This document shows positions 1,066-33,936 of a stretch of 36,391 bases of DNA, piece by piece. The stretch comes from Clostridia bacterium. GTDB lineage: Bacteria; Bacillota; Clostridia; HGM11514. The notes beneath the pieces are model-generated. The model saw only the letters and a list, made by a program, of their open reading frames with translations, was not told where the DNA came from and ran no database searches. The stretch spans positions 1 through 36,391 of the forward strand of contig JAXEOR010000005.1 of NCBI GenBank assembly GCA_034117945.1, in the 5' to 3' direction. Every line of letters starts with the position of its first letter. Position 1 is the stretch's first letter. A program made the position numbers and the translations under genes.

Positions 1066-1108
1066 AAAAAACCGAAGCTGCTGTAAGCCGAGTGTTCTTA
1101 AGGACAGT
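1066..1108. repeat. Left arm of 43-nt imperfect inverted repeat bracketing the AT-rich GRE island (partner 5215..5257)
   Basis: aaaaaaccgaagctgctgtaagccgagtgttcttaaggacagt. Hand alignment against the reverse complement of 5215..5257 gives 37 Watson-Crick pairs, 4 G-T pairs and 2 mismatches. The inner 18 nt (1091..1108 vs 5215..5232) pair perfectly. Confidence 0.7.
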
Positions 1109-1136
1109 AAAAGGGGCTGAAAAAAATCCCCTAAAA
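1108..1136 (-). terminator. Weak hairpin plus T-stretch downstream of the activase gene
   Basis: On the minus strand, AGGGG-11 nt loop-CCCCT is followed by TTTTAC. The stem is only 5 bp. Confidence 0.3.
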
Positions 1137-1167
1137 CATTTTTACAGTCCCTTTAATTATTATTTCA

Positions 1168-2067
1168 TTACAAAATTTCAATAGTTATATTTGTTTTATC
1201 TCTCATATAATTAATAAATGGTGCTATGCTGTCGGCGGATAAAAATTCTCTATTCTGATATCCCTGTGTTTTTCCAAGTTTAATTGACTTATGAATTCCC
1301 AAAGGATGGTACGGTTCGATATGTATGGCGACAACATTCCTGAGTTCATTTGCGAGATTTGCAATCTTGTTAAAATGATTTTCCGTAAAATTGACACCAG
1401 GGATTATCGGGCAACGCAAGATGATTTTTGCCCCTATACTATCAAGATAAAAGAGGTTTATTAATATTTTTTCATTGGAAACACCTGTATACCTAATATG
1501 TTCTTTTTCAGAAAGCAACTTTATGTCATAAAGCCACAGATCAACATATTGAATTATTTCATTTAATTGTTTATAGCAATAACCGCTTGTTTCAACTGCA
1601 GTATGAACTCCGGCTGCTTTTGTTTTTTTCAGAATTTCCAAAGAAAAATCATATTGCATCAAAGGTTCTCCGCCTGAAAGTGTAATACCACCGCACGATT
1701 GTTTATAAAATTCTGCATCTCTTAAAATTTCATCCATAACCTCACCAACTGTTATCTCTTTTCCGCAGACTTCAAGTGCGTTGGCAGGACATTCCAAGAC
1801 ACATTTCATACATTTTTTGCAGTTATTGTGCAAAAAAATATGTTTATCGGTATCAAACATATGTTGCTTGAGATTGCACGCTTTTTCACACTTTCTGCAA
1901 TTTATGCATTTTTCTGAATCATAAAAAATTTCAGGACAAATGGATTTTGATTCCGGGTTGTGACACCATATACAAGAAAGAGGACACCCCTTAAAAAAGA
2001 CAACTGTACGTATACCCGGACCATCACTTGTTGAAAAGCGCTGAATATTAAATATATTTCCCGTCAT
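1168..2067 (-). CDS. Glycyl radical enzyme activating enzyme (radical SAM, PflA family) with two ferredoxin-like auxiliary cluster motifs
   Basis: N-terminal FSTSDGPGIRTVVFFKGCPLSCIWCHNPE (CX3CX2C). Auxiliary motifs are CINCRKCEKAC and CKKCMKCVLECP, plus GGITLSGGEPL. Its ATG (2065..2067) directly abuts the TAA stop of the upstream GRE (2068..2070). Confidence 0.93.
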   Translation of the reverse strand: MTGNIFNIQRFSTSDGPGIRTVVFFKGCPLSCIWCHNPESKSICPEIFYDSEKCINCRKCEKACNLKQHMFDTDKHIFLHNNCKKCMKCVLECPANALEVCGKEITVGEVMDEILRDAEFYKQSCGGITLSGGEPLMQYDFSLEILKKTKAAGVHTAVETSGYCYKQLNEIIQYVDLWLYDIKLLSEKEHIRYTGVSNEKILINLFYLDSIGAKIILRCPIIPGVNFTENHFNKIANLANELRNVVAIHIEPYHPLGIHKSIKLGKTQGYQNREFLSADSIAPFINYMRDKTNITIEIL

Positions 2068-4158
2068 TTATATTATATGCTCCGTTCTTAAAATCAACTC
2101 TTCCTGCATTTCAGGAGATAACTTTACAAAGTAATCACTGTAACCGCCTATTCTTACAACAAGGTCTTTATATTTCTCTGGATTTATCACTGCCTTTTCC
2201 AGTGTTTCTTTATCAATTACATTGATTTGCATTTCAAATCCGCCTCTTTTGAGATATGTTTTAATCAGGCTTTTCATGGTATCAAGAGAATGCCTGCCCA
2301 GTGACCTCTTTGAAAACTTCATATTTACTGCAATACCGCCGAGGAGTTCATGATGTGCCCATTTTGTAGAAGATAAAATAGAAGCGGTAGGGCCTTTCAT
2401 TTCTCTGCCCTGACACGGACCTGAGCCGTCACCGAGGGGGAAACCGGCTTTTCTGCCGTCAGGAGTTGCTCCTGTTTGTCTTCCGAAACGCTCATGCATA
2501 ACCCAACAAAAAACGCTTGGTATAAGATTTCCGTTTGTATGCATTCCTTTGTATTTCTTACATTCCGATATAATATGTTCCGTTATTTTCCCAAACAAGC
2601 AGTCAACTTCATCAATGTCGTTACCATATTTCGAAATAGAATTTAATAAACGCTGACTGAAAATTTCATTATTCTCAAAGTTACTGTCGAGTATCTTCTT
2701 AAACTCTTTGATGCTGAGTTCTTTCAAGTCAAATACAATTTGCTTTAACGCATACAAAGAATCTACCAAGTTTGCCATTCCTACGAAGCTTGGCATAATC
2801 CAGTTATATCGTGCACCACCCTGTTCAATATCTGTTCCGCGCTCAAGACAATCATCCACAAAACAGGAAAGAAAAGGATTCATTGAGTTTTCACTGCGAT
2901 ATTTTCTGTCTGCATTTTCGTTCTCAAAGTTACTTTTGATTTTAGCATCAAGGTTTGCAAACAAAGTTACTAATAGCTCACCCATGTCAGTGTATTCTCT
3001 GTCAAGAATATCAAGCAGAAGCTGAGGCATATTCGTATACGGACTTGCCACCCAGACATTTGAGGAAGCTACCGGCGTTATCTCCACACAGGTGCTATGA
3101 ATATAGCTGTGAGCTTCTTTTTCGGGTACACCATAGCATTTTAATCCTTTTGTTATAATATCATCGTTAAATATTGCCGGGTGTGAACAACCGTGTGATA
3201 TAATTTCGCAGGCTTTTTCCAGATACATGTCGTCCATCTCCTCAGTATAGCATAGCCCAACGGAGGGATAAACCAGTCTTATGTCGTCTACTACCTGCAT
3301 ACACATATCGGTGAGCTCATTTGCAACAATGTTATTGTTTTCGTCACGGCCTCCGACCATATAACCGCTCGACAAACCGTTCGGCACACGGTTGTTGATT
3401 TGTATTCCAAGGCAATTTAAAAGCAACTGTGCATATTCTTTTGTGATAACACCAGTTCCTATATCTTTAAGATAATATGGCAATAAATACCGGTCCGGAT
3501 GCCCCAACTGAAACTGCTGTGGACAATACCGGAAGGGGTTAAGAGAAAGACAAAAAGTAATAAAATGAACAGATTGTATTGCTTCGTAAAAACTTTCAGC
3601 AGGATTGGCAGGTACTTTTCTGCATATTTCTGATATTAGATTAAGCTCTTTACATCTGTTTGCATCCGTTGAATTTTCTGACAGTCTTGCTGCTTCGTCA
3701 GCGTAACGTTCTGAAAAACTTATAACTGCTTCAAGGCATTTTTTACATGTAAGATAAAATTTCTTTTTGCTATCATCGCAATTTAAGAGATAGATATTGA
3801 TTTTATCAATGATACCATTTAATCCGTAATTTAATATGAGTTCATAATCAACAGCCATATGTGAATCCTGACCGCTTCCTGCTTTTGCAGATTCCGCTTT
3901 TGCTATGTGCAAATACTTATTCAGCCATTCATTTTCTTCCTCATGCGATAGCTTATTATTGCATTTTCCCACGATAAGCTCATCTTCCGATATAGATGGC
4001 GTCAAGTTAGAAAATGCAAAACAAAAGGCTTCTGCATAGCGGTCTTCTTTTGATGTCTTTTGACTGTCACTATAACACTTGAAGAATTTATAAAAAAATT
4101 CATCATAGCAAATTACATTCTCCAAAGCCATCATGCGTAATTTCTTTATTCTTTTCAT
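2068..4158 (-). CDS. Compact glycyl radical enzyme (PFL-like superfamily, eliminase-type Cys-x-Glu loop), about 696 aa
   Basis: C-terminal glycine-radical motif VVRIGGYSDYFVKLSPEMQEELILRT. Thiyl loop is HSTCVEITP and the ATPDGR motif is present. Start taken as ATG 4158 (MKRIKKLR...), preceded by AAAGGA. The ORF-track start at 4230 lacks an RBS. Confidence 0.93.
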   Translation of the reverse strand: MKRIKKLRMMALENVICYDEFFYKFFKCYSDSQKTSKEDRYAEAFCFAFSNLTPSISEDELIVGKCNNKLSHEEENEWLNKYLHIAKAESAKAGSGQDSHMAVDYELILNYGLNGIIDKINIYLLNCDDSKKKFYLTCKKCLEAVISFSERYADEAARLSENSTDANRCKELNLISEICRKVPANPAESFYEAIQSVHFITFCLSLNPFRYCPQQFQLGHPDRYLLPYYLKDIGTGVITKEYAQLLLNCLGIQINNRVPNGLSSGYMVGGRDENNNIVANELTDMCMQVVDDIRLVYPSVGLCYTEEMDDMYLEKACEIISHGCSHPAIFNDDIITKGLKCYGVPEKEAHSYIHSTCVEITPVASSNVWVASPYTNMPQLLLDILDREYTDMGELLVTLFANLDAKIKSNFENENADRKYRSENSMNPFLSCFVDDCLERGTDIEQGGARYNWIMPSFVGMANLVDSLYALKQIVFDLKELSIKEFKKILDSNFENNEIFSQRLLNSISKYGNDIDEVDCLFGKITEHIISECKKYKGMHTNGNLIPSVFCWVMHERFGRQTGATPDGRKAGFPLGDGSGPCQGREMKGPTASILSSTKWAHHELLGGIAVNMKFSKRSLGRHSLDTMKSLIKTYLKRGGFEMQINVIDKETLEKAVINPEKYKDLVVRIGGYSDYFVKLSPEMQEELILRTEHII

Positions 4159-4186
4159 AACGAAATATCCTTTCTTTTTTTCTTGC

Positions 4187-4195
4187 ATTATAACA
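4187..4195 (-). promoter_or_regulatory. Candidate extended -10 promoter (TGtTATAAT) for the GRE-activase operon
   Basis: The minus strand reads catgTTATAAT about 25 nt upstream of the 4158 start. No good -35 box is present. Confidence 0.35.
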
Positions 4196-4264
4196 TGATT
4201 TATGATACAATAATAGTGAAAAAGATTCAAAATTATGTATTATCGTATCAAACGAGGCGGAGAA

Positions 4265-5119
4265 ATGGATATTAAATTTCATTGTGATTCAAAACAAAAT
4301 TTCAAAAATGAACATCAACAAGTTCGCGCATTTTTATATACTGATTATTCAATTGAACCCCATAATCACGATTTTTATGAGATGAATATTATTATGAAGG
4401 GAAAAGGAACGCATCAAATTGAGAATGCATGCTTCAGCGCGGAAACCGGAGACGTATTTATGATACCTCCAATGAGGATACATTCATATTACGACACCGA
4501 AGATTTAAATGTATATCATATTTTATTGCATAAGGATTTTATCAGCAATAATCAAAAGGAAAACTCAAGTATTCCGGGTTTTGTTCAATTTACTGAGATT
4601 GAACCATTTTTACGTCAGAATTTTTCAAAGAAAATGTTTCTACATCTTTCTCACGGACAAATATTGCAGTTAAAAACCGACTTAGCCTTTATTGAGGACA
4701 ATAGTGTTTATGATACAAAAGAAATGTTGCCTATAAAAAACCATACAACATGGAAAATCTTATATTGGCTTTCTGCCTTGCTTTTTGATCAAATATATGA
4801 TAAAAACAAAAAGACTTTGAATAAACATGATATTGAAATCATCAGAACTCTTGAATATATACATCAAAACTACGATAGTAAAATAACTATTGATTTGTTA
4901 AGTCAAAAATCGTTTCTTTCACGTTCGACATTTCTCCGTCGCTTTCGCGATGTATGTGAATGTACACCAATGGAATATGTAAACAGATACCGCTGTAAAA
5001 AAGCCCTGGAAATGATAGATAACACATGCTTTTCAAAAACAGAAATTGCATATCATTGTGGATTTTACGATTTATCTCATATGGAGCGGACAATGAAGCA
5101 ATTATGTTCATTACTGTAA
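4265..5119 (+). CDS. AraC-family transcriptional regulator (cupin-like N-domain plus C-terminal HTH), divergent from the GRE
   Basis: N-domain HNHDFYEMNIIMKGKGTH...GDVFMIPP. C-terminal AraC HTH is LSRSTFLRRFRDVCECTPMEYVNRYRCKKALEMI...IAYHCGFYDLSHM. Start is ATG 4265 after GAGGCGGAG. Confidence 0.9.
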   Translation: MDIKFHCDSKQNFKNEHQQVRAFLYTDYSIEPHNHDFYEMNIIMKGKGTHQIENACFSAETGDVFMIPPMRIHSYYDTEDLNVYHILLHKDFISNNQKENSSIPGFVQFTEIEPFLRQNFSKKMFLHLSHGQILQLKTDLAFIEDNSVYDTKEMLPIKNHTTWKILYWLSALLFDQIYDKNKKTLNKHDIEIIRTLEYIHQNYDSKITIDLLSQKSFLSRSTFLRRFRDVCECTPMEYVNRYRCKKALEMIDNTCFSKTEIAYHCGFYDLSHMERTMKQLCSLL

Positions 5120-5181
5120 CGAGCAGGGAAGATGTGTACCATCTTCCACGATTTTAGGATACTCCTAATACCTTATACAAT

Positions 5182-5212
5182 AAACCCCGAAACAAATTTT
5201 GTTTCGGGGTTT
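5182..5212. terminator. Bidirectional rho-independent terminator
   Basis: aaaCCCCGAAAC-aaatttt-GTTTCGGGGttt. This is a perfect 9-bp stem flanked by A and T runs. Confidence 0.75.
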
Positions 5213-5214
5213 AA

Positions 5215-5257
5215 ACTGTCCTTAAGAACACTTGGCATATGGCGGCCTCGGTTTTTT
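5215..5257. repeat. Right arm of the 43-nt inverted repeat (partner 1066..1108)
   Basis: actgtccttaagaacacttggcatatggcggcctcggtttttt. See the left arm for the alignment. Confidence 0.7.
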
Positions 5258-5298: not shown

Positions 5299-5322
5299 AA
5301 AAAGAAAAAAGGGGCCTTCCCT

Positions 5323-5631
5323 TTAAAAATGATAAGGAACGGTAAACCGCTCTGCATTCAGGACGGGCAGGGGGAATTCCTTTGCCAGCAGGCGGAGCAT
5401 TTGATCCAGCTCGGTCGGATGATCGGCACTCAGTAAAATAACCGGAACAGCGTTCATTTCAGCAGCGCAGGCGATGCCCCGGCGCACCTCCTGCTCGAAG
5501 GTCTCCGGATCCTCGTTGGTGTCAAACACAGCGTACAGGTGCTTGGGGGGAGAGGGACGCATGTGAAACAGTAAAATAATCCCTGCCATGACTGCCAGCA
5601 GGCATAATGAAACAACAAAAGGGGACAGCAT
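5323..5631 (-). CDS. Hypothetical small membrane-anchored protein (about 102 aa)
   Basis: N-terminal hydrophobic helix SPFVVSLCLLAVMAGIILLF. ATG 5631 is preceded by AGAGAGGTG. I recognise no family. Confidence 0.55.
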   Translation of the reverse strand: MLSPFVVSLCLLAVMAGIILLFHMRPSPPKHLYAVFDTNEDPETFEQEVRRGIACAAEMNAVPVILLSADHPTELDQMLRLLAKEFPLPVLNAERFTVPYHF

Positions 5632-5710
5632 TGGGTTCACCTCTCTTTCAGCGGAATGTTCTGCTCTTATCTTATGCAGTATGATGGATTAATGTGACGG
5701 AGGAATGAGA

Positions 5711-11315: not shown

Positions 11316-14300
11316 ATGAGATATCTTGATGAAAAAGCGGAAAAAACGGTGTGGCAGTTAGAAAAATTAACCGTGAAGGAATGCACTGCTTTAGAAGGGT
11401 TTTACATAAAATTTTGTGACTATAAAAAGGACAATGAAATTCCCGAAGTGGATGAAAGCTGGGAGCCTCTTTCCTCCTTTCTGCCCCTTGAGGGACGGGA
11501 TATGCATTGCTGGATCCGGGGCAGGTTTCAAACCCCGCCGGCTCGCCCGGGAGAATATTACGCTTTGGAATTTGCCCAGGAAAATAAAAATTGCAGAATT
11601 CAGGTGCTGTTGTATTTAAACGGCGAAATGACCCAGGGGCTGGATGTGAATCACACCAGAACCTTTTTGGAGCCGGATACGGAATATGATGCGGCCTTTT
11701 ATTGCTATTTTGACCGTATTTCTCCCTATTCTGCCTTAACTCCCAAACTTGTGACGGTGTGCGAACGGACGGAGGAGCTGTATTTTGACTTTTTTGTGCC
11801 CTATGACGCAATGACCTGCCTGGAAAGGAACTCTGACGATTATCGGATCATCCTTCACCATTTAGAGCTGGCGGCCAATCTGATTGATTTCAGACAGCCC
11901 TATAGGGCGGAGTATTACGAAAGCGTGCAAAGGGCAAAGGATTATTTAAAGCGGGAATTTTATGAAAAGGAATGTGGAAAATCGGGCGTTACCGTGAACT
12001 GTCTGGGACATTCTCATATTGATGTGGCCTGGCGCTGGCCGGTGAGACAAACGGTAGAAAAGGTGCAAAGAAGCTTTTCCACTGTGATTCATTTGATGAA
12101 ACGGTATCCGGAATATTTATTTATGATGACCTCTCCTCAGATGTATCTGTTTTTAAAGGAACAGGCACCCCAGCTGTATCAGCAGGTGAAGGATCGTATC
12201 CGGGAAGGACGGTGGGAGGCAGAGGGTGCCATGTGGCTGGAGGCAGACGGAAATCTGCCCTCCGGGGAAAGCTTTGTCCGCCAGCTGTTGTTCGGAAAGC
12301 GGTTTTTTCAGCAGGAGTTTGGAGTGGACAGCAAAACATTGTGGATTCCGGATGTGTTCGGTTATTCCGCCGCTTTGCCTCAAATTCTGAAAAAAGCGGG
12401 AGTGGATCGGTTTGTGACCGGTAAAATCAGCTGGAACGATACCAATCGGATTCCCAATGACACCTTTTATTGGAAGGGGATCGACGGGACGGAAATTTTC
12501 ACCCAATTTTTAACCACCAAGGATTTTGTCAATCCGGACAAATCCCGGGAGTTTGTGATGATCAACGGCGCTATGGACGCCAGAGAAATTAAAAGCACCT
12601 GGGATATTTACAGAAACAAAGAGTATAATGACCAAACCATTCACACCTTCGGATTTGGCGACGGAGGCGGCGGCCCCACCTATCAGATGCTGGAGCGCCA
12701 GCGGAGATTTGCTTACGGAATTCCCGGAATTCCGAAAACAAAAATGAATACCTTGAGCAATTTTTTAGATCAGGCGGAGGAAAACTTTAAGGCCTCCTGC
12801 AAAACCTATCAGCGCACACCGAAATGGACGGGAGAGCTTTATCTGGAATATCACCGGGGCACCTTTACCTCCATGGCGAAAACAAAGCGTTTGAACCGGC
12901 AATGCGAGTTTGCTTTGATGGAAGCAGAGGGACTTTGCGCCTTGGATTTGGCTGTGAATCATCAGGCATATCCCTATCAGGAGTTTTGCGATATGTGGCA
13001 GCTGATGCTGCTCAATCAATTTCATGACATCATTCCGGGCAGCTCCATCAAAGAGGTGTATGATCTTTCAGACAAACAGTATGAATCCGTTTCTGCATTT
13101 TGTCACAAAACAGCCCGGCAGGCAAGAGAGCATTTTGCAAATAAGATTCAGTGCGGCAAGGGGTATCTGGTGTTTAATCCTCATTCCTATGAATGCTCGG
13201 ATGTTGTGGCAGCAGAGGGCAGCTTTGCTTATGCTCCCGCTGTTCCTTCCTTCGGCTACAAGGCATTTGACAGCCTGAGCTTTGAAAATCATGCCCAAAT
13301 AGGGGAGCGGTCTGTTTCTAACCGGTTTTTTGATATTCGTCTGGACGAACAGGGAAATATCGTGTCCTTGTTTGATAAAAGAAACGGTCGGGAAACTGTG
13401 TCGGGGCCGGCAAACAAATTTTGCGCTTATGAGGATATGCCTCGGTTTTATGACGCTTGGGAGCTGACCTATTATTACAAGCAAAAATGCTATGAAGTGG
13501 ATGAGTTGGTCAGCATTTCGGAATATCGGGACGGGGCAAAGGCAGGACTTACCGTTGTTAAGAAATTTATGGATTCTATCATGACCCAAAATATTGTGGT
13601 GTATGACGAAATCCCCAGAGTGGATTTTGAAACGGAGATTGACTGGAAGCAGGAGCATTTGGTGCTGAAAACCTTGTTCCCGGTCAACGTGTTTACCAAT
13701 CAGGTTACGGCGGAAATTCAATTCGGTCATGTGGAGCGGGCGACCCATTCTAACACCAGCTGGGATGAGGCCAGATTTGAGATGTGCATGCACAAGTGGG
13801 TGGATTTTTCTGATCAAGCTTATGGGGTCAGTATGCTCAATGACTGCAAATACGGGTTCTCTGCACAGGAAACCCTGCTGGGACTGACCATTCTGAAATC
13901 AGCCACCGATCCCAATCCTGAGGCGGATAAGGGGATTCATCATTTGACCTATTCCTGGTATCCTCATCAGGGACATGGGGTTGCGGGCGGCACCGTTCAG
14001 CAGGCTTATAACTTAAATCAAAAAATGACGGCAGTGAAAACGGAAGGGTCGGAGGGTGCTTTGCCCGCCCAAGCCTCCTTTGTCAGCTGCGATCGGGAGA
14101 ATATTATTTTAGAAACACTGAAAAGAAGCGAGGATGGCACGGGGCTGATTCTCAGACTGTATGATGCGTACAACACCTCCAGTGCGCCTGTGATCTTCTT
14201 TGGGTTTGATGTGAAGCGGTGCTGGCTGTGCGATCTGAATGAGCACAAGCAAACTGAGGCAGAGGTGAAAAACAGATCTGTCTGCATTCCGGTTCAGAAT

Positions 14301-14333
14301 TTTGAAATTGTAACGCTGCTGCTTGAGGTATGA
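11316..14333 (+). CDS. Glycoside hydrolase family 38 alpha-mannosidase
   Basis: GH38 N-domain signature GHSHIDVAWRWP. Also LWIPDVFGYS and LYLEYHRGTFTS. About 1005 aa. Confidence 0.92.
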   Translation: MRYLDEKAEKTVWQLEKLTVKECTALEGFYIKFCDYKKDNEIPEVDESWEPLSSFLPLEGRDMHCWIRGRFQTPPARPGEYYALEFAQENKNCRIQVLLYLNGEMTQGLDVNHTRTFLEPDTEYDAAFYCYFDRISPYSALTPKLVTVCERTEELYFDFFVPYDAMTCLERNSDDYRIILHHLELAANLIDFRQPYRAEYYESVQRAKDYLKREFYEKECGKSGVTVNCLGHSHIDVAWRWPVRQTVEKVQRSFSTVIHLMKRYPEYLFMMTSPQMYLFLKEQAPQLYQQVKDRIREGRWEAEGAMWLEADGNLPSGESFVRQLLFGKRFFQQEFGVDSKTLWIPDVFGYSAALPQILKKAGVDRFVTGKISWNDTNRIPNDTFYWKGIDGTEIFTQFLTTKDFVNPDKSREFVMINGAMDAREIKSTWDIYRNKEYNDQTIHTFGFGDGGGGPTYQMLERQRRFAYGIPGIPKTKMNTLSNFLDQAEENFKASCKTYQRTPKWTGELYLEYHRGTFTSMAKTKRLNRQCEFALMEAEGLCALDLAVNHQAYPYQEFCDMWQLMLLNQFHDIIPGSSIKEVYDLSDKQYESVSAFCHKTARQAREHFANKIQCGKGYLVFNPHSYECSDVVAAEGSFAYAPAVPSFGYKAFDSLSFENHAQIGERSVSNRFFDIRLDEQGNIVSLFDKRNGRETVSGPANKFCAYEDMPRFYDAWELTYYYKQKCYEVDELVSISEYRDGAKAGLTVVKKFMDSIMTQNIVVYDEIPRVDFETEIDWKQEHLVLKTLFPVNVFTNQVTAEIQFGHVERATHSNTSWDEARFEMCMHKWVDFSDQAYGVSMLNDCKYGFSAQETLLGLTILKSATDPNPEADKGIHHLTYSWYPHQGHGVAGGTVQQAYNLNQKMTAVKTEGSEGALPAQASFVSCDRENIILETLKRSEDGTGLILRLYDAYNTSSAPVIFFGFDVKRCWLCDLNEHKQTEAEVKNRSVCIPVQNFEIVTLLLEV

Positions 14334-16564: not shown

Positions 16565-19500
16565 TCAATCCCGGTTGATGTTACATTCAATGACGCTTTG
16601 AATCTCTTTTTTGATATTAAACTGATGGGTATCGGATAATTTCTCTGTTTGCGTGCAGAACTGCATTCTTGAAAGCGCAAGTGCGTTTTCCTCCTCCGGG
16701 CAGATGCCAAAAACAAATCTGAAGCTGTGGGGTCTTAATTCATAGCATTCCTCAGGATTGGGGCCGCAGGAATGACTGCCTAGTCCGCGCATTTTGTAAT
16801 CAATATACAGGTATTTGTTTTTGGATTTTTTAAGCTCATTTCTGTGCCTTGCGTTTTCCAGATCCTTTAGCGTAAAATCATGACAGGAAAAGTCAAGCCG
16901 ATCTGCACCGATAATGGAAAAGGATTTGTTTTCGGCAAGGAGTGTTGCAAAAAATGTTTCTGTTCTTGTTCCGCATTCCTGGGGAATATCATACATGAAA
17001 TTCATTTCTGTGATAGGCAGCTCATAAAGTCCGAAATTGCAATGCTCCTTTCTGTCAATATAATTTTCCTCAGGACCTCTTCCGTACCACCGAACAGTGC
17101 TATAATTCTCCGGTATTTCAAAGCATACGCCGATTCTGGGCAACACCTCCGGAAGGGCACCGAAGGGTTCGCCTACATATTCAACAAGAATCAATCCGTC
17201 CTCATAAACCCGGTAAATCAAGCTGATGTTAAATCCGGCAAACCGCGCTTCCGGGAATGCCTTTCCGTTCACTGTAATCTTGATGCAGTCCTCCTCTTCG
17301 TCTGCATTGACCGACTGAGCAAAAAATTTAAAATGTTTGAGAAAAACAGCATCCCATTTATCAATCCATCTCGGCGCAAAGCCGATGATACCGTCGTTAT
17401 CAATAGGCGCACGGTAAAAATTCAGCTTCATGGGAGAGCAAAGCAGAACGCTGCCCTTGTACTCATAATAGGAAATCAGCCCTTTTTGAAAGGATACTTT
17501 AAAATGTTCCCCATCCAAGGTAAGATTTTTTCCTTCCGAGGTGAGCGTTACACATGGTTTTTTGGCGGCATATATGGTTTTTTCATTGCGCCCGAGCGAA
17601 ACCTGCTTATAGGCAATTTCAAATCTGCGGTCGTCATAAAACCGTAGATTAACAAAATAGTTTGCTCCCGGTGTTTTACCGGGAATATCGGTATCAATGG
17701 GAAGCGCCTGCTCTGAATATGGCTTGATTGCAGGCAGCTGCATTTCTCCGCTCTTTAATACTTGAAAATCCTCGCAAATTTCCCATTTCAGAGAAACATA
17801 ATCAAGGGGGCGGAAATTGTTTGTATTCATGATCTTGATTGTATTATTCTCGTAGGTTACATAACATGGAGATAAAACATTTTTACATTCCCTCAACGAG
17901 GGCTTGGGTGTTCCGTCCGAAAGACAATATCCGTCTATGGAGAAATTTGACCAATGATTATAGTCGCCGAAATCACCGCCGTATTTGTAAAATGCATTAC
18001 CGTCAGCATCGCAGCTGTAAAATCCATGGCTTTTATATTCCCAAACATATCCTCCTGTAATATGACGGTTGTGATAAACATAATCCCAGGTATCCTTCAT
18101 CAGCCCGGGACTGTTCCCCATTGCATGACCATACTCTGTCAGAATCACAGGCTTTCCCTGTTCCGGATAACTCAGCAGTGATTCCATTGTAAAATATCCG
18201 TCGGTGCGAAAATCATTCATGATGGGATTTTTGGAATCATCCATTGTGTGAAAAACAGGAACATTCCCCAACCTTCTCTTGATATAACGGATGCATTCAT
18301 CAATATTTTCACCGCAGCCATGCTCGTTTCCGATCGACCAGATGATAACGCAGGTTTCATTTTTGTCTCGTTCTACCATCCTTTCGGTGCGGTTTAAATA
18401 GGCTCCCAGCCATTCCGGCTGTTTGGAAAGGTAGCCCTGATCGCCTGTTGTATTGCATCCGTGGGTTTCAATATCTCCCTCATTCATAACATAAAATCCC
18501 AGCTCGGAAGCAATTTCATAAAATGCCGGATGATTGGGATAATGAGAGCATCTGATGGCATTCATATTGTGATTTTTTAAATTTTTCAACTCATTTTCTA
18601 TGAGTTCAACAGTGATTGCTCTGCCGTTTTTGGGATCATATTCATGACGGCAGACTCCCTTAAGAGTAATGGGTGTGCCGTTTACAAACAGCTTGTTTCC
18701 CTCAATGTGTTTTTCAATCAAGCCGATTTTTTTTGAATGAATTTCTATGGGCACTCCGTTCCTTTCAAGGGTCAGATAGGTGTGATACAAAAAGGGTTCT
18801 TCGGCATTCCATTTGACCGCATGATCCACCTCAAATTCAAAATGCATATTTTTTTCTGCTTGTTTTTCAATGGTTTGCCCGTCCGCCTCTGCTCTTACGA
18901 TGCAATGAGTCATATCTTCACCGCCAAGAACAACCTCCATCAGAATTTTATTTCCCTGCGTGTGAATATGATAATCAAAAATATAATTATCTGAAAGCTG
19001 AAAAATCATAACATCTCTGAAAATGCCGTTTGCAAGAAGCATATCCTGATTTTCAAGATAGGTTGCGTCACTGTAGGTAAACACCTTTACGCACAAAATA
19101 TTCTCTCCGTCCACAGCCATATCCGAAACATCAAATTCTGCCGGAAGTCTGCTGCCCTTTGAAAAGCCGACGTATTTTCCGTTTAGATAAACAAAAAATG
19201 CATTGTCTACTCCCCCGAAATAAAGAATGGTTCTTTCTGTCTTTTGTAAATAAAATTTTTTTCTGTAGTATCCCACAGGGTTATCACAGGCGACAAAGGG
19301 CGGATAAAAGGGAATAGGATAGACTACATTGGGATAAGCAGGCTGAGAATAGCCCCTGTATTGCCACATGGAAGGCACATCTATCACATCCCAATCGCCA
19401 TCGTCTAAATCAGGCAGATAGAAATTTTCTATGCAGTCATCCTCTTTGTACAAAAATTTAAAATCTCCGTTCAGCAGACGGATCAGCTCAGAGTCGGATT

Positions 19501-19618
19501 TATTCCTATAATATACATCCTTATGCAAAGCCGGAACTAAAGAGGCTCTTGGCTTCATGCAGCCCTCCTGTAAATAAGCCGGGCTGTTAATTTTCTCTTG
19601 ATACATTTGTAATTCCAT
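16565..19618 (-). CDS. lacZ: GH2 beta-galactosidase (LacZ type, with C-terminal small-chain domain)
   Basis: Acid/base region WSIGNEHG and nucleophile region ILTEYGHAMGN. The C-terminal domain carries RWYGRGPEENYIDR. About 1017 aa, AT-rich. Confidence 0.95.
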   Translation of the reverse strand: MELQMYQEKINSPAYLQEGCMKPRASLVPALHKDVYYRNKSDSELIRLLNGDFKFLYKEDDCIENFYLPDLDDGDWDVIDVPSMWQYRGYSQPAYPNVVYPIPFYPPFVACDNPVGYYRKKFYLQKTERTILYFGGVDNAFFVYLNGKYVGFSKGSRLPAEFDVSDMAVDGENILCVKVFTYSDATYLENQDMLLANGIFRDVMIFQLSDNYIFDYHIHTQGNKILMEVVLGGEDMTHCIVRAEADGQTIEKQAEKNMHFEFEVDHAVKWNAEEPFLYHTYLTLERNGVPIEIHSKKIGLIEKHIEGNKLFVNGTPITLKGVCRHEYDPKNGRAITVELIENELKNLKNHNMNAIRCSHYPNHPAFYEIASELGFYVMNEGDIETHGCNTTGDQGYLSKQPEWLGAYLNRTERMVERDKNETCVIIWSIGNEHGCGENIDECIRYIKRRLGNVPVFHTMDDSKNPIMNDFRTDGYFTMESLLSYPEQGKPVILTEYGHAMGNSPGLMKDTWDYVYHNRHITGGYVWEYKSHGFYSCDADGNAFYKYGGDFGDYNHWSNFSIDGYCLSDGTPKPSLRECKNVLSPCYVTYENNTIKIMNTNNFRPLDYVSLKWEICEDFQVLKSGEMQLPAIKPYSEQALPIDTDIPGKTPGANYFVNLRFYDDRRFEIAYKQVSLGRNEKTIYAAKKPCVTLTSEGKNLTLDGEHFKVSFQKGLISYYEYKGSVLLCSPMKLNFYRAPIDNDGIIGFAPRWIDKWDAVFLKHFKFFAQSVNADEEEDCIKITVNGKAFPEARFAGFNISLIYRVYEDGLILVEYVGEPFGALPEVLPRIGVCFEIPENYSTVRWYGRGPEENYIDRKEHCNFGLYELPITEMNFMYDIPQECGTRTETFFATLLAENKSFSIIGADRLDFSCHDFTLKDLENARHRNELKKSKNKYLYIDYKMRGLGSHSCGPNPEECYELRPHSFRFVFGICPEEENALALSRMQFCTQTEKLSDTHQFNIKKEIQSVIECNINRD

Positions 19619-19934: not shown

Positions 19935-20009
19935 ACACTATAGCGTGATGATCCTTTAGGCGTGATTTTATGGTTTTTTATGTGCTTTGTGGGCAGGAGG
20001 TCTTTTGAA

Positions 20010-20783
20010 ATGAATATGAACAATTTATCTGTTATGCGCATTATGCAGGAAAGTTGCAGCAAAAGTAAAGAGAAAACAGATATTATCATGCCCTACACCG
20101 CCCTTCATTACATCCTATCGGGATCCGGCTATTTCAATCGGGTAAAGCTTGGAGCAGGGCAGTTTTTCTGCGCCGTGAAGGATACAAAGGTGTGCTATTT
20201 CCCCTGCTATGAGGAGCCTTGGACCTATATTTATATTGATTTTTATAGCGAAAAAAGTAAAATGGACTCTCCTCTGAAATGGGGACTTGATGTTAACGCC
20301 CCCTACGGACAATTTGATTTTATGGAGGAGCTGAAAAAAATTTATGGCTTCTATGAGGAATATAGTCGGCATTATATATGTAATAATGAATTTATGACAT
20401 CGGTGGCAAGTATGATCCTTTTTCTGCACAAAACCCCGGCACAAAGGGACAGTTCTCTGGCACACAAGCATGTCAATGATATCAAAGAGTATTTAGATTT
20501 TAATTTCTACAAAAAAATCAGGATCGAGGATCTTGCAAAGGAATTCTATCTTTCTCGCCAATATGTACGCAATCTATTTGATCAGTATTTGAACATGTCC
20601 CCAAAGCAATATCTTCAAAAAGTAAGAATGGAGAAGGCCTCTGAATTGCTTTTGAATACGCAATATAGTGTGGCTCTTGTAGCCTATTCGATCGGGTATG
20701 ATGATCAGCTCGCCTTTTCTAAAATGTTTCAATCCTATTATGGATTGTCCCCGACACAGTATCGAAAGGCAAATGCAATATAG
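20010..20783 (+). CDS. AraC-family transcriptional regulator
   Basis: C-terminal HTH LSRQYVRNLFDQYLNMSPKQYLQKVRMEKASELL...VAYSIGYDDQLAFSKMFQSYYGLSPTQYR. Start is ATG 20010 after AGGAGG. Confidence 0.9.
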   Translation: MNMNNLSVMRIMQESCSKSKEKTDIIMPYTALHYILSGSGYFNRVKLGAGQFFCAVKDTKVCYFPCYEEPWTYIYIDFYSEKSKMDSPLKWGLDVNAPYGQFDFMEELKKIYGFYEEYSRHYICNNEFMTSVASMILFLHKTPAQRDSSLAHKHVNDIKEYLDFNFYKKIRIEDLAKEFYLSRQYVRNLFDQYLNMSPKQYLQKVRMEKASELLLNTQYSVALVAYSIGYDDQLAFSKMFQSYYGLSPTQYRKANAI

Positions 20784-20820
20784 GATGCTTTATTTTTAAT
20801 GATCGGAAAAATGGTTTCAG

Positions 20821-20862
20821 AAAAAATGACCCCCTCAAATATCAGGTTTTTGAGCGGGTCAT
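20821..20862 (-). terminator. Rho-independent terminator of the second GRE operon
   Basis: ATGACCCCCTCAAA-9 nt-TTTGAGCGGGTCAT pairs at 13 of 14 positions. It is followed on the minus strand by TTTTTTCTG. Confidence 0.7.
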
Positions 20863-20902
20863 TCTATGACAGGACAGGCACCCTTAATGACGAAGCCTGT
20901 GG

Positions 20903-22894
20903 TTAGACGGTATATTCGGTTCGTGCAATGATGTGATTTTGATATTCAATATCCAGCTCGTTGAAATAACCGCTCCAGCCCCACACCCGAACAATCAGAT
21001 TGGGGTGCTGCTCAGGGTGCTTTTGGGCGTCCAGCAGCTGATCCCGGTTGATGGAGTTGATTTGCAGCTGGTGGCCTCCCAGCAAAATAAATTCTTTGAC
21101 CAGTGCCGCTGTTTTGGTAATGCCGTCTTCTGTGCGGAATACCGTATCGTGCACTTCAATGGTCAAGGGGCCGCCGTTGATAATTTCCGTCAGATCGTAC
21201 TTGGTAAAGGATTGAATCACAGAAAGTAGACCGGCAGTTTTCACATCCAGAGAGGGAGAAAAGCTGGAGGCATAGGGTTCTCCGGCCAGCCGTCCGTCCG
21301 CTGTGGCAGGGCAGGCCTTTCCCTTGGAAATATAGTCCATAGCACTGCCGGTGCCTGCCCGCCAAATGCCCCCTCTGCCGTTGCTTTGGCCATTTAGGTG
21401 ATGAGAAAAGGCCTTCATCAGCTGGCAGGCAATCTGATCCACCTCATCCTCATTGCTGCCCATTTTCGGACAGGAGCGCAGCAAATTGCGCAGGGGGATA
21501 TTTCCTTCAAAATTGTGATCCAGAGCGTCTAAAAGCTCCTCCTTGGAAACTGCTTTATCATCATAAATGACCTGCTTGACGGCTGCCAGCGCATCCGCTC
21601 CGTTAGAGATTCCCGCACCGTGACAGCCAAAGTTTAGATATTTGGTTCCCCCTTGAAACAGACCGGTCAGGTTTTGGATGCAGCCGTCAAAGAAAACGGA
21701 CAGCAGGGGATGGATTCCCCAGCTTGCGCCTTCCGCCCCCTTGATCAGCCGCTGACATTCTGCTCCGATTGCCTTTTGTACCTGCTCCATCAGGTCGGAA
21801 AAGGTGGGGGCGGCCATCAGACAGCGGTGAAGGGTATCGCTGATCACATGGGGGAAATCCATGGTTTTCAGGTTGGGAACATCTGCTCCCAGACCGGGAA
21901 TGATATATTCCCAGCAGGCTGCTACGGTATAATCCAGTGCGTCCTTCTTATCATAGCCCAGCTTGACCAGCCCGGGAACGACCACGTCGTCGTTGCAGTA
22001 TTGGGGAAAGCCCAGCCCTTCCTTGGTAAGCATCGTGGCGGCTTTGAACAGGCTTGGAGGGGTGTTTTTCCCCACCCGCAGGTTGATTTTCGGATCAATG
22101 AGCTTCAGCTCTCGGGAGGCATCCATGCAGAATTGGGACAGTCGGTGATACATGTTGTTTCCCTGCTCGTCAAACCCGCCTAATACCATGCTTTGTCCAT
22201 TATCGCCCTGCTGAATGCCGGTGTAAAGATCAGTGTCAAAATTCAGGGAGATGAAAAATTCCTCCAGCAGCTCAAACAGCTCCTCATCCGGAACGCCCCG
22301 CTTTTGATCCGCCAGAAAAAAGGGCAGCATATATTGATCGAACCTGCCCAGGGTAACGTGGCACACATGGTCGTACCGTAGCAGATAAATGCAAAGCTTG
22401 AGAAAAACGCAGGCCTGATGGAAGGTTTCAGCCCCCCGGCGGGGAACGGTTTCCAGGGCCTTTGCCAATTCTGTATGTCCTTCCTGCAAAGCCTGAACCC
22501 GGTACCGTTCGGCAAAGGCAATCCCCGCTTGCAGGGAGGAAATCATTTCATGGGCAAACTGCCGCTGTTCTTCATTTTGGGGCTGCTGCCTTTTGATTTC
22601 CTCTATGATTTTGTCAAAGCCCTGGGTGATGACCCGGCTGTAATTGGGGGTTACGTTACCTCCCCAGTCCTGGGAGACAAAGCGGATGCTGCGGTGAAAG
22701 CCCAGCCGATCCTGACCGTAAAAAACCGGGCGTTCCTCTGCCAGAACCTTAGAGAGCCACCCGGCTCCGTTTTCCTTGCAGCAGCTTTGCAGCTGTTCCC
22801 ATTCTCGGGGCGCGTCCCGGCGATTGCTCCGGTATTCTCGTTTTCTCAATATTTCCAAAAGCTCCTGTACCCGTTTTGTCATAATGATTTTCAT
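20903..22894 (-). CDS. Compact glycyl radical enzyme, second paralog, about 660 aa
   Basis: C-terminal motif IVRVWGWSGYFNELDIEYQNHIIARTEYTV. Thiyl loop is TVAACWEYIIPG and PATADGR is present. The start is ambiguous (ATG 22894 or 22882; the ORF track uses GTG 22909). Confidence 0.92.
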   Translation of the reverse strand: MKIIMTKRVQELLEILRKREYRSNRRDAPREWEQLQSCCKENGAGWLSKVLAEERPVFYGQDRLGFHRSIRFVSQDWGGNVTPNYSRVITQGFDKIIEEIKRQQPQNEEQRQFAHEMISSLQAGIAFAERYRVQALQEGHTELAKALETVPRRGAETFHQACVFLKLCIYLLRYDHVCHVTLGRFDQYMLPFFLADQKRGVPDEELFELLEEFFISLNFDTDLYTGIQQGDNGQSMVLGGFDEQGNNMYHRLSQFCMDASRELKLIDPKINLRVGKNTPPSLFKAATMLTKEGLGFPQYCNDDVVVPGLVKLGYDKKDALDYTVAACWEYIIPGLGADVPNLKTMDFPHVISDTLHRCLMAAPTFSDLMEQVQKAIGAECQRLIKGAEGASWGIHPLLSVFFDGCIQNLTGLFQGGTKYLNFGCHGAGISNGADALAAVKQVIYDDKAVSKEELLDALDHNFEGNIPLRNLLRSCPKMGSNEDEVDQIACQLMKAFSHHLNGQSNGRGGIWRAGTGSAMDYISKGKACPATADGRLAGEPYASSFSPSLDVKTAGLLSVIQSFTKYDLTEIINGGPLTIEVHDTVFRTEDGITKTAALVKEFILLGGHQLQINSINRDQLLDAQKHPEQHPNLIVRVWGWSGYFNELDIEYQNHIIARTEYTV

Positions 22895-22959
22895 AGCCTT
22901 TCTGCCCACAGAATGAAAAATAGGGCGGACACGCTTGCTCTTACCGTGGGCGGATAAGG
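22895..22959 (-). promoter_or_regulatory. Conserved hairpin element, copy B (between activase and GRE)
   Basis: The minus strand reads CCTTATCCGCCCACGGTAAG-29 nt-TGTGGGCAGAAAGGCT, directly abutting ATG 22894. GCCCAC pairs with GTGGGC. Confidence 0.55.
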
Positions 22960-22983
22960 CGTATCCTTCAAAAGGAAATGGTT

Positions 22984-23832
22984 TTATAGCAGCTTTGTTT
23001 GGATGCCGTGCGCTTCAAAAAGCTCCTGCCGGGGGTTGGGGGACAGGGTGACATCAAAATTCGGCTGATAGCTTCTGCCGGTCATGGCATATTTACTGCC
23101 TGCCATGTTATGGTAGGGCATCAGCTCGGCATAGGCGATGCCCTCTTCTTGCAGCAAAGAGGCGATGGCGGCAATGTTTTGCTGGGTATCCGTCACTCCC
23201 GGAATCAGCGGAACACGGATGCAAAACGGAGTATCGCTCCGGGCAAGCAGATGAAAATGACGAAGAATGCTTTGATTGCTGCACCCGGTATAGGCTTTGT
23301 GCATAGCATCGTCTATGAGTTTTAAATCAAACAGGATATAGTCCGTAGCGGAAAGAACCGCCTCAAACAGGGGATCCTGGCAATAGCCGCAGGTCTGCAC
23401 TGCGGTGTGCAGTCTGCCCTTGAGCAGAGAAAGACATTCCAGCAAAAATTCCCCCTGGAGCAGAGGTTCTCCGCCGGAAAAGGTAACGCCCCCCTCCTGC
23501 TGTAAAATGGCCTGATTTTTGCATAATTTTTTTGTCAGCTCCTGAGCCGAATAGACTTGGCCGCACATACGCAGCAGCCCTCTGGGACAGACGGCAATGC
23601 TTTCCTCGGTCAAAATCACGCCGTCCGGTTGGGCAATGCCCGCCTGAAGGCAGCTTCCGCAATGGAGACAGCCGTTGGGACTTTTCACAATTTCAGGCTT
23701 GCTTTGCTGCCCTTCCGGGCTGTGGCACCAGCTGCACCGCAGAGGGCAGCCCTTGAAAAACACTGTGGTGCGGATCCCCGGTCCGTCGTAGATAGAAAAT
23801 TCCTCAATAGAGAATACAGTTCCCTGTGACAT
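22984..23832 (-). CDS. Glycyl radical enzyme activating enzyme (radical SAM), with a single reduced auxiliary-cluster insert
   Basis: FSIYDGPGIRTTVFFKGCPLRCSWCHSPE. There is one CLHCGSC...CP motif, plus GGVTFSGGEPL. Start is ATG 23832 (MSQGTVF). The ORF-track extension to 23949 covers the leader. Confidence 0.92.
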   Translation of the reverse strand: MSQGTVFSIEEFSIYDGPGIRTTVFFKGCPLRCSWCHSPEGQQSKPEIVKSPNGCLHCGSCLQAGIAQPDGVILTEESIAVCPRGLLRMCGQVYSAQELTKKLCKNQAILQQEGGVTFSGGEPLLQGEFLLECLSLLKGRLHTAVQTCGYCQDPLFEAVLSATDYILFDLKLIDDAMHKAYTGCSNQSILRHFHLLARSDTPFCIRVPLIPGVTDTQQNIAAIASLLQEEGIAYAELMPYHNMAGSKYAMTGRSYQPNFDVTLSPNPRQELFEAHGIQTKLL

Positions 23833-23844
23833 ACTTTGTTTCAC

Positions 23845-23897
23845 AGCCTTTCTGCCCACAAAAATAAAGAAATCATAAGCCCTTTTTGCCGTGGGCT
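23845..23897 (-). promoter_or_regulatory. Conserved hairpin element, copy A (upstream of the activase)
   Basis: The minus strand reads CAGCCCACGGCAAAAAGGGCTTATGATTTCTTTATTTTTGTGGGCAGAAAGGCT, ending 12 nt before ATG 23832. Confidence 0.5.
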
Positions 23898-23982
23898 GAC
23901 TTTGCTTTTCCGGGGGAGAGCACGGCGGTACAGAAAAAATCCGCCGCACCCCGATTTTGCAGAAATATGTCCCCCTATGGTT

Positions 23983-24012
23983 ACTATATCATTTTGCCTC
24001 TTGACAAAGCAA
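23983..24012 (-). promoter_or_regulatory. Candidate promoter of the activase-GRE operon
   Basis: The minus strand reads TTGCTT, an 18-nt spacer, then TATAGT with an upstream TG. Its -35 box is adjacent to the -35 box of the divergent AraC promoter. Confidence 0.4.
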
Positions 24013-24029
24013 GAAACTTTTTATACAAT
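24001..24029 (+). promoter_or_regulatory. Promoter of the AraC gene at 24070
   Basis: TTGACA (24001..24006), a 17-nt spacer, then TACAAT (24024..24029). Confidence 0.65.
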
Positions 24030-24069
24030 AATAGTCAAAAGTTATCTTTTTCAAAAGAAGGTGAGCAGA

Positions 24070-27269: not shown

Positions 27270-27311
27270 TTGATAACCACCTTTTCCTAAAAAATATTTA
27301 TGACCGTGCCC

Positions 27312-27545
27312 TTCAAACAAGAAAAGTCCGTAAACAGAAGCGTTTACGGACAAAATACCTTCCTGTTCAATCCTGATAGCGCTCCACAGATTTGTGACAG
27401 TGTATTGCATTTTCTGCAATACCCCAGCAAAGAAGTCTCCGGCGAAAGCCCCTTTGCTTCGGCGCCCGTTCCTTTCCTCCAAGCCCGGCGGCCGGCCGGT
27501 CAGCGGCCTGGAGTACTGATCCCAAACGCACCTCTACCATTGATC
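27312..27545 (-). promoter_or_regulatory. Lysine riboswitch (L-box) with intrinsic terminator expression platform
   Basis: The minus strand shows the conserved L-box blocks in order: GGTAGAGGTGCG ... ATCAGTA ... GGAGGAAAGG ... GGGCGCCGAAGC ... TTGCTGGGG ... ACTGTCAC ... GGAGCGCTATC. These are followed by GTCCGTAAAC-gcttct-GTTTACGGAC plus TTTTCTTGTTT (27312..27351). Confidence 0.9.
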
Positions 27546-33713: not shown

Positions 33714-33739
33714 AGGCTACATAGCAGACCTGCTGTGTT

Positions 33740-33903: not shown

Positions 33904-33936
33904 GCACGGCGGGTTTTTATCATTTTATTACATTTT

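Follow-up and report, generated by a model that had tools for sequence, protein, structure and literature searches.

What reaction is catalysed by a glycyl radical enzyme (GRE) that lies in an AT-rich island with only an activase and a regulator beside it, and how did these three genes come to lie where they do? The locus that raises these questions is in positions 1–36,391 of JAXEOR010000005.1 (GCA_034117945.1, Clostridia bacterium); this whole 36,391-nucleotide stretch is referred to as the window, and all coordinates are window positions. The answer favoured here, at a probability of roughly 0.7 for the whole, is that the three genes make up a recently acquired cassette, bounded by terminal inverted repeats (TIRs), that encodes an AraC-induced compact GRE for radical C–O cleavage. 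Loci from other genomes, assemblies or metagenomes are labelled L001–L104, and representatives of clusters formed at 50 % identity are labelled P0xxx.

An earlier reading of the DNA made from its letters alone (the original prediction) had described an AT-rich island encoding a GRE, its activase and a divergent AraC regulator, and both the open reading frames (ORFs) and the drop in GC content were verified. The GC content of 1168–5119 is 0.35, compared to 0.48 in the left flank, 0.51 in the right flank and 0.47 for the whole window. The GRE (2068–4158, minus strand) is 696 aa long, begins with MKRIKKL and includes the residues H100, C357, E359 and G672 discussed below. It is followed by a GRE-activating enzyme of the radical S-adenosylmethionine (SAM) type (1168–2067, minus strand; 299 aa) that includes a CX3CX2C motif and one ferredoxin-like domain, and the activase ATG directly abuts the GRE stop TAA in the overlap-free TAAATG junction already pointed out in the original prediction. 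The regulator (4265–5119, plus strand; 284 aa) consists of a cupin sensor domain and an HTH_18 domain, and is separated from the GRE gene by a divergent regulatory region of 106 bp (4159–4264) that contains conserved blocks. Though the GRE ORF can be extended upstream to a TTG at 4230, a start at the Met codon at 4158 is supported because homologues begin at the same Met and AAAGGA lies 9–10 nt upstream. For the regulator, a start at 4265 is more likely than the alternative at 4235, which would yield 294 aa, because GGAGA is found 4 nt upstream and the homologues are 281–287 aa long.

The GRE scores 368 bits against the PFL-like domain (PF02901) and 89 bits against Gly_radical (PF01228), and each motif that had been read from the sequence is present, namely the radical glycine motif VRIGGYSDY, in which G672 is the radical Gly (encoded by 2137–2154), a single Cys followed by x-Glu in HSTCVEITP (TCVE; C357 and E359), and the PDGR motif in GATPDGR. 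In a MAFFT alignment of 138 sequences, where the query shares 34 % identity with the B12-independent glycerol dehydratase (GDH) over 667 aligned positions, H164, C433, E435 and G763 of GDH correspond to H100, C357, E359 and G672, respectively. The GDH sequence was reconstructed from HMMER alignments and its numbering was verified by recovering H164, C433, E435, D447 and G763. H100 lies within SHMAVDY, which aligns to GHVSVDY of GDH, the GH..DY motif of diol dehydratases. The invariant columns across 61 close homologues include H100, C357 and G672, E359 is unchanged in each close homologue sampled, and all four residues are invariant across 49 distant homologues. In GRE eliminases and isomerases, the Glu of Cys-x-Glu is the general base (PMC13450708).

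Membership in a characterised GRE family was considered and rejected. The top PDB sequence match is GDH (1R8W, 4.4e-97, 30–34 % identity), and the next, at 205–330 bits, are the GRE propanediol dehydratases, PflD, HypD, CutC and others. All NCBIfam equivalog scores lie below the cut-offs of 1000–1150, with HypD at 334 (cut-off 1100), CutC at 277 (1050), PflD at 328 (1109), HpfG/HpsG at 303/297, IAD at 235 and HPAD at 191 bits, and the score of 434 bits against the broad PFL2-3 subfamily model TIGR01774 is also short of its cut-off of 678. Hence, neither of the findings that the original prediction had named as fatal to it, close identity to a characterised GRE or loss of the radical Gly or Cys in a proper alignment, was encountered. 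No characterised member of the group is listed in a 2026 review of GREs (PMC13450708) or was found in the 2025–2026 literature. The enzyme has every superfamily feature that could be tested for and fits no named family; it is best placed in a distinct compact subfamily that has no characterised member.

The original prediction also called the enzyme unusually compact, which is true in comparison to the characterised enzymes (765–850 aa) but not in comparison to the sequence databases, where compact GREs are numerous. A search of 5.8 billion proteins recovered more than 100 clusters at 66–93 % identity, almost all exactly 696 aa long and annotated only as hypothetical proteins from metagenome-assembled genomes (MAGs) of Clostridia or Oscillospiraceae. 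The species-representative genomes with the family are MAGs, several from the gut of water buffalo, sheep or goat, and the titles of the others give no source. When 50 %-identity representatives were searched exhaustively, the top matches, down to approximately 350 bits, were nearly all 684–760 aa (range 684–774) and GREs of canonical length (780–850 aa) appeared only below approximately 346 bits; about 50 compact clusters score above any GRE of canonical length. A neighbour-joining tree groups these approximately 50 compact clusters with the query, apart from GDH and the other canonical-length groups. Members of the compact group mostly carry the Cys-loop (H/N)STCVE(I)TP, in place of the xxGCVE of canonical enzymes, and the Gly-loop signature GYSDY. 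Judged from the tree and the searches, short length is a trait of the clade, and the idea that compactness is a singular oddity was set aside as this large clade shares it and short GREs also occur in other parts of the tree, among them a second GRE in the window (GRE2, 663 aa) and a paralogue in L005 and L013 that is linked to a Zn-dependent alcohol dehydrogenase (Zn-ADH) and is 703–708 aa long. The compact clade is not mentioned in a paper on aminoacyl radical enzymes or in the 2025–2026 literature.

Three further observations were made while the family was being delimited. In L029 (2329–6869) and L031 (1233–5685), a compact-clade GRE stands in tandem with a GRE of approximately 720–730 aa that belongs to another lineage, and no activase gene adjoins the pair. 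In the distant relatives P0227, P0246, P0260, P0266 and P0253, the radical Gly is replaced by Ala (VRVAAY...) or Thr (VRVATY...), making these proteins candidates for the aminoacyl radical enzymes, a class described only recently. The metagenome loci L036–L103 are dominated by a separate GRE family of approximately 785 aa that lies outside the compact clade; its Gly loop reads VRVAGYSDY and its nearest representative is P0183.

The AlphaFold model of the GRE (61 homologues) has a pLDDT of 87.8 and a pTM of 0.90, and Foldseek matched it to 50 GRE structures with template modelling (TM) scores of 0.83–0.92. Against all solved GRE eliminases and isomerases, the TM scores are 0.86–0.92 at 22–30 % identity, with GDH ranked first (1r8w, TM 0.90). 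Together, the alignments and the model show a GRE of the PFL2-type Cys-x-Glu class with its predicted fold and catalytic apparatus complete. When the active site was compared to that of GDH, the catalytic His, Cys, Glu and Gly were found to be kept and residues of the pocket altered, with D447 replaced by A371, Y640 by F550, and GHS280-282 by QQ214-215, where the local sequence of the query is LNPFR..QQFQLGH.

The query is shorter than GDH through the loss of approximately 58 residues within GDH 76–147, six at 194–199, 12 at 324–335 and 16 at 463–478. An N-terminal truncation was rejected as the reason for the shortness, as the first 65 residues (M.RI..LR ... ELIVGK) correspond to GDH 11–75 in alignments to 1R8W, 9RCO and 2F3O and are the typical N-terminus of the family, with RIxxLR...ELIVG retained and the losses internal (within GDH 76–147 and in three loops). 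The largest deletion falls in the helical region before the barrel, a region that forms the conserved dimer interface of GREs (PMC13450708), and we infer that the oligomeric interface is altered. Because the pocket appears remodelled (A371, QQ214-215, F550 and the loop deletions), the substrate is probably neither glycerol nor propanediol and a different compound is expected.

In the mechanism that we propose, the AraC protein would sense a small carbohydrate- or polyol-derived molecule and switch on the GRE-activase operon from the 106 bp divergent region. The activase, with SAM and [4Fe-4S] clusters, would place a radical on G672, which would then move to C357, and the resulting thiyl would abstract a hydrogen next to a hydroxyl. 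That hydroxyl would be deprotonated by E359 and the neighbouring oxygen leaving group protonated by H100. The net reaction would be C–O cleavage, in the most likely case with a small neutral substrate, a vicinal diol or polyol, losing water to become an aldehyde or ketone, and the product would be consumed by housekeeping dehydrogenases or, in some genomes, by the adjacent Zn-ADH. In GDH, the His protonates the leaving hydroxyl and the Glu deprotonates the neighbouring hydroxyl (PMC13450708); dehydration to a carbonyl compound would be the most likely reaction because H100 and E359 match the residues with these roles.

Genomic context was surveyed in 21 genome or assembly loci and 80 metagenome loci, and counts are given for 22 sources, i.e. 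the 21 loci and the window. The metagenome scan returned mostly unrelated 785-aa GREs because the radical motif alone was the query. The only recurrent partners are an AraC gene (18 of the 22 sources), divergent from the GRE gene wherever inspected, and an activase gene (7 of 22). The original prediction had the cassette free of microcompartment shell, aldehyde or alcohol dehydrogenase and transporter genes, in agreement with the finding of only three ORFs between the repeats, and the cassette, like more than 20 loci related to it, yielded neither a 1,3-propanediol dehydrogenase gene nor shell and aldehyde dehydrogenase genes. Its view that the substrate could not be inferred from context was likewise borne out, as no pathway partner is conserved across the loci surveyed. 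Six loci (L001, L003, L011, L014, L016 and L017) contain an AraC gene and the GRE gene with no adjacent activase; if active, these GREs would need an activase from elsewhere.

The carbohydrate clues that remain are sparse but consistent, and hint at a carbohydrate- or polyol-derived substrate. The glycosidases reported around the cassette are real, with GH38 at 11316–14333, GH2 at 16565–19618 and GH3 from approximately 34.26 kb to the end of the window. The most informative carbohydrate context found is L024 (4536–13000), where the GRE is 58 % identical to the query and a gene for a xylose-isomerase-like TIM barrel lies directly upstream with a gap of 3 nt. These two genes and the activase gene downstream of the GRE look like an operon, and genes for GH2 and for a sialidase-like protein with BNR repeats are found further upstream. 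In L005–L007 (10001–17045) and L012/L013 (e.g. L013 10001–17697), a GRE of 696 or 703 aa is paired with a second GRE of 703–708 aa from a different clade. Between the two lie a polyol-type Zn-dependent dehydrogenase, for which the best NCBIfam matches include threonine, idonate and scyllo-inosose dehydrogenases, and either an Acetyltransf_9 protein or a 419-aa protein that has no annotation; a second regulator of the AraC type comes after these, and L013 continues with NanE and a sugar-kinase-like gene. A candidate transporter gene lies directly upstream of the GRE only in L005–L007 (EamA family); one in L020 is by a different AraC gene. The rarity of transporters beside the GRE is more easily reconciled with a small neutral permeant substrate or an intracellular metabolite.

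A number of points weigh against a diol or polyol dehydratase. Most related loci sit among unrelated housekeeping genes and the carbohydrate context is patchy, many family members have no adjacent activase, and the mapping of the active site relies on sequence alignment only, with the alignment of GDH 276–290 and 324–339 varying by method. The conserved Cys, Glu and His are also common to isomerases and are not specific to dehydratases. The main chemical rival is an isomerase of the PflD/YbiW/HplG type that, once a hydrogen had been abstracted and E359 had acted as the base, would open a cyclic ether or amine, such as an anhydro-sugar, to an isomeric ketone. Isomerase chemistry likewise relies on Cys-x-Glu (PMC13450708), PflD is one of the better PDB matches (285–369 bits, TM 0.91), there are carbohydrate genes nearby, including that for the xylose-isomerase-like TIM barrel of L024, and isomerisation to a central metabolite would require few partners. 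However, the substrates of the sugar isomerases known so far are 6-phosphates, and the genes for these enzymes have phosphotransferase system (PTS), kinase and aldolase genes beside them, of a kind not present here; the PflD equivalog score is only 328 against a cut-off of 1109, and similarity to the diol dehydratases is slightly higher, making an isomerase unlikely.

The scarcity of partners would also suit a decarboxylase like HPAD, IAD or PAD, releasing a terminal volatile product so that no downstream genes are needed. Some decarboxylase loci resemble the stand-alone GRE and activase, and no pathway partners were seen in more than 20 loci. This is quite improbable because the similarity is much weaker (HPAD 129–205 bits and the IAD model 235, compared to 329–429 bits for GDH); in addition, a gene for a small subunit is missing, genes of aromatic or amino-acid fermentation do not occur in the vicinity, and H100 is in the GH..DY motif common to diol dehydratases.

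For the activase, the TIGR02494 score of 331.5 bits is well above the cut-off of 174 and all scores for substrate-specific equivalogs are below their cut-offs. The CX3CX2C motif is CPLSCIWC. Two ferredoxin-like inserts had been ascribed to this protein; there is in fact one insert with two CX2CX2CX3C motifs, and GRE activases normally have one such insert, PFL-AE and RNR-AE excepted (PMC13450708). The regulator matches AraC_binding (52 bits) and HTH_18 (51 bits), and its sensor domain shows weak similarity to RhaR/RhaS in PDB and NCBIfam comparisons that is not diagnostic of a ligand but agrees with the other sparse clues to the substrate.

When 10 intergenic regions were aligned, three blocks were found to be invariant even though the GREs are only 66–78 % identical. 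These are TGA.ACGAT.ATACAT (about 4252–4235), ACTATTATTRTATCA (about 4217–4203) and TATAAT (4192–4187), which lies approximately 29 nt upstream of the GRE ATG; the conserved ATTATAcAT / ATTATATCAT blocks are candidate binding sites for the AraC protein. The conservation supports a shared regulatory design, and the blocks may act as promoter and operator. A scan for consensus promoters returned promoter-like sites only at the level expected by chance.

The second part of the question is how the genes arrived. A discrete unit of approximately 4.15 kb (1086–5237), bounded by 23-nt TIRs and found in several genomes, is made up of the three genes. Activase, GRE and AraC ORFs fill the whole unit, and no transposase was found in it by ORF calling and Pfam/NCBIfam annotation. 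The TIR on the activase side, AGCCGAGTGTTCTTAAGGACAGT (1086–1108, plus strand), includes an invariant 18-nt core at 1091–1108, and the TIR on the AraC side, the reverse complement TGCCAAGTGTTCTTAAGGACAGT (5215–5237, minus strand), has its core at 5215–5232 and is followed by TA (5238–5239). The full repeats of approximately 23 nt (AGCCGAGTG... / TGCCAAGTG...) match at 21 of 23 positions. The core, AGTGTTCTTAAGGACAGT, has exactly two copies in the window, one inverted relative to the other, compared to 0 expected by chance, and likewise two inverted copies in each of L008, L009, L010 and L104; it is invariant at all eight ends. The copies occupy four unrelated genomic contexts (the site shared by the window and L104, and those of L008, L009 and L010). 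Homology to the window covers 1085–5240 in L008 (95.7 %), 1150–5232 in L009 (92.1 %) and 1150–5241 in L010 (91.9 %), and the flanks are unrelated. Between L009 and L010, a 4133 bp match at 98.2 % identity fills exactly the interval from repeat to repeat, and the two loci match at no other place.

Beyond the TIRs, an inverted repeat specific to each locus is flanked by an A-tract at one end and by a T-tract at the other. In the window, the left half is AAAAAA-CCGAAGCTGC-TG (1066–1083), followed by TA (1084–1085), and is the inverted repeat of the right half, TG-GCGGCCTCGG-TTTTTT (5240–5257), a locus-specific arm. If the flanks are rejoined at TA, they fold as terminator-like hairpins of −22.4 kcal/mol (z −3.5) for the window, −18.1 kcal/mol (z −7.0) for L009 and −26.1 kcal/mol (z −10.1) for L010. 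The hairpin arms at the window site, AAAAAACCGAAGCTGC-loop-GCGGCCTCGGTTTTTT, lie between an mltG-like gene and orf105, and the flanking genes converge on the insertion site in both the window and L010. The apparent insertion point of the cassette is a TA within the loop of an intrinsic-terminator hairpin between the convergent mltG-like gene and the ORF at 5323–5640. This ORF (minus strand, 105 aa, no Pfam match) adjoins the cassette and converges on the mltG-like gene, and has a terminator-like hairpin of its own at 5308–5324.

Further hairpins lie within the unit. A candidate terminator for the GRE-activase operon, a small GGGG...CCCC hairpin with a T-run (1110–1135, minus strand), is found just 3′ of the activase, and L008–L010 have a stronger hairpin, AAAGGTCGTAGCAGATTGCTACGACCTTT, at this position. 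A perfect 16-bp palindrome, TAAACCCCGAAACAAA / TTTGTTTCGGGGTTTA (5181–5213, plus strand), is a candidate araC terminator and is kept in L008–L010. A consensus terminator scan did not call the hairpins at the cassette ends.

A transposable unit is not free of difficulties, and several findings count against it. The left flank of L008 does not fit the hairpin model, which leaves an apparently split hairpin in three of the four sites, and it was the analyst who chose the TA at which the flanks were rejoined into "empty sites". TA is found outside the repeat at seven of the eight ends, but TA is self-complementary and the flanks are inverted repeats, so a duplication is ambiguous. A look-up of exact proteins in search of an empty site found none with MltG, and with DapDH only two contigs, both of which include the island. 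No cognate transposase or autonomous element with matching ends was found in 1.3 Mb of locus sequence or in viral contigs, and no flanking repeats were found around the more distant cassettes. Transposition in trans and the targeting of terminator loops are therefore proposals rather than observations. Separately, three matches to the TIR core in viral contigs, each single-copy and inside a phage ORF, were dismissed as chance.

With the enzymology unchanged, the repeats could alternatively be part of a palindrome that lies between genes or at a terminator, in which case the unit would not be transposable and would have spread by homologous or site-specific recombination or on a larger element. 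The failure to find a transposase, a clear direct-repeat target duplication or an empty site would be explained, as would the hairpins adjoining both ends and the irregular flank of L008. This alternative is doubtful in the face of an identical 18-nt core at both ends of every copy with outer arms that are locus-specific, and of the 98.2 % identity of L009 and L010 that is confined to the stretch between the cores in unrelated contexts. Decayed and solo ends are also at odds with it. In L019 (8928 and about 12100–12620), a decayed cassette has degenerate ends and an activase reduced to fragments, and in L020 (10144), a solo activase-side repeat with one mismatch lies by AraC, EamA and melibiase-like genes, with a GRE that lacks an activase. 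Both sets of ends behave like the relics of a transposable element, and a mobile, TIR-bounded cassette remains the reading that we prefer.

The cassette has a GC content of 35–38 % in every copy and this is below that of the host only in the lineage comprising the window, L008–L010, L019 and L020; in most other genomes, the GC content of the GRE gene matches that of the host. As the contrast is limited to one lineage, the family would be old and a single lineage recently mobilised from a donor of lower GC. On this account, the cassette in the window would have been acquired recently from a donor with a lower GC content than its present host.

The damage in L019, where the activase is degraded, and in L020, where it is lost, together with the many relatives without an adjacent activase, also raises the question of whether the cassette is decaying, non-functional cargo. 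This is hardly credible for the copy in the window. The catalytic residues are invariant, the three ORFs are intact and a length of 696 aa is fixed in more than 100 clusters. Between cassette copies, the ratio of non-synonymous to synonymous substitution rates (dN/dS) is 0.19–0.25 for the activase, 0.15–0.17 for the GRE and 0.14–0.23 for AraC, and values of 0.14–0.25 show purifying selection on all three genes, which are thus predicted to be functional.

Gut-microbial GRE chemistry affects the host through the production of trimethylamine, H2S, p-cresol and skatole and through the degradation of hydroxyproline. There are whole GRE clades still without any assignment (PMC13450708), and one of these has now been delimited. 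It comprises at least 50 clusters at 50 % identity, is abundant in MAGs of Oscillospiraceae and other Clostridia, mostly from the guts of ruminants and other animals, and now has signatures by which it can be recognised, a structural model of high confidence and a minimal unit of sensor, enzyme and activase. That uncharacterised GRE clades exist was already known; the size of this one and its reduced architecture add interest, and the reduction of 91 residues, mostly in the N-terminal helical dimer-interface region, bears on the minimal needs of a GRE. The three-gene unit is ideally suited to heterologous expression and to finding the substrate by way of inducers, making the substrate question directly testable, and the AraC regulator with its conserved putative operator could serve as a biosensor for the GRE substrate.

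The mobile-cassette structure of the GRE module comes on top of this and is previously undescribed. A transposase-less TIR cassette in terminator loops that carries a radical-enzyme module between species would be an example of the spread of an anaerobic trait, and insertion into terminator loops would, if true, be a safe-harbour strategy not described for metabolic cassettes. A more ambitious proposal, which we make tentatively and regard as less probable than its converse, is that the compact STCVE/GYSDY clade is a major branch of the GREs with a reduced dimer-interface region, a remodelled pocket and a reaction, new to GREs, on a carbohydrate-derived substrate and that, in addition, the cassette is a non-autonomous transposon specific for terminator loops.

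Elsewhere in the window, a second, unrelated compact GRE cassette (19980–24831) has a native GC content of approximately 52 % and adjoins GH2. It includes an AraC gene (19980–20783, plus strand), GRE2 (20903–22894, minus strand; about 663 aa, motifs AACWEY, PATADGR and RVWGWSGY), a second activase (22984–23832, minus strand; about 282 aa), in which the two-cluster ferredoxin motif set appears incomplete, and another AraC gene (23977–24831, plus strand). GRE2 reaches the cut-off of no equivalog model, its best PDB match is PflD (261 bits), and it lies in a different part of the tree, with relatives of 725–733 aa. A lysine riboswitch (27369–27544, minus strand; 100 bits) is located upstream of an amino-acid ABC transporter operon made up of genes for the binding protein (26427–27410), permease (25642–26406) and ATPase (24915–25700), and a 6S RNA gene (94.9 bits) is at 33724–33919 (plus strand).

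Palindromes are targeted by IS1397 and ISKpn1, which insert in the loops of REP/BIME sequences, and by class C group II introns, which insert at terminators. Like these elements, the cassette appears to insert in the loop of a stem-loop, leaving the arms outside as locus-specific repeats; it differs from them in having no recombinase or intron features, and its target preference is drawn from only three of four sites. It shares with the mobile insertion cassettes and elements resembling miniature inverted-repeat transposable elements a TIR-bracketed passenger, the lack of a transposase and varied contexts (PMC4337579, PMC5444012). However, the cargo here is a complete regulated radical-enzyme module with terminators of its own, and the sites resemble the loops of intrinsic terminators.

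Among the enzymes, PflD/YbiW (anhydroglycolysis) and the HplG isomerases resemble the GRE in Cys-x-Glu chemistry, a carbohydrate theme, TM scores of 0.91 and similar sequence scores, but share only approximately 24–27 % identity with it in Foldseek, are longer (765–810 aa) and belong to an equivalog for which the query falls below the cut-off, and PTS, kinase and aldolase genes are not among the neighbours here. From GDH (Clostridium butyricum DhaB1, 1R8W/1R9D), the query differs in being approximately 91 residues shorter and in having Thr rather than Gly before the Cys, and its cassette differs from GDH loci in being under AraC control and in having no DhaT, microcompartment or glycerol facilitator genes. 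With GDH and the propanediol dehydratases (5I2A, 9RCO) it nonetheless shares the 10-stranded barrel, the Gly loop and the Cys-x-Glu loop, as well as the His of GH..DY, the PDGR motif and an activase with a ferredoxin-like domain.

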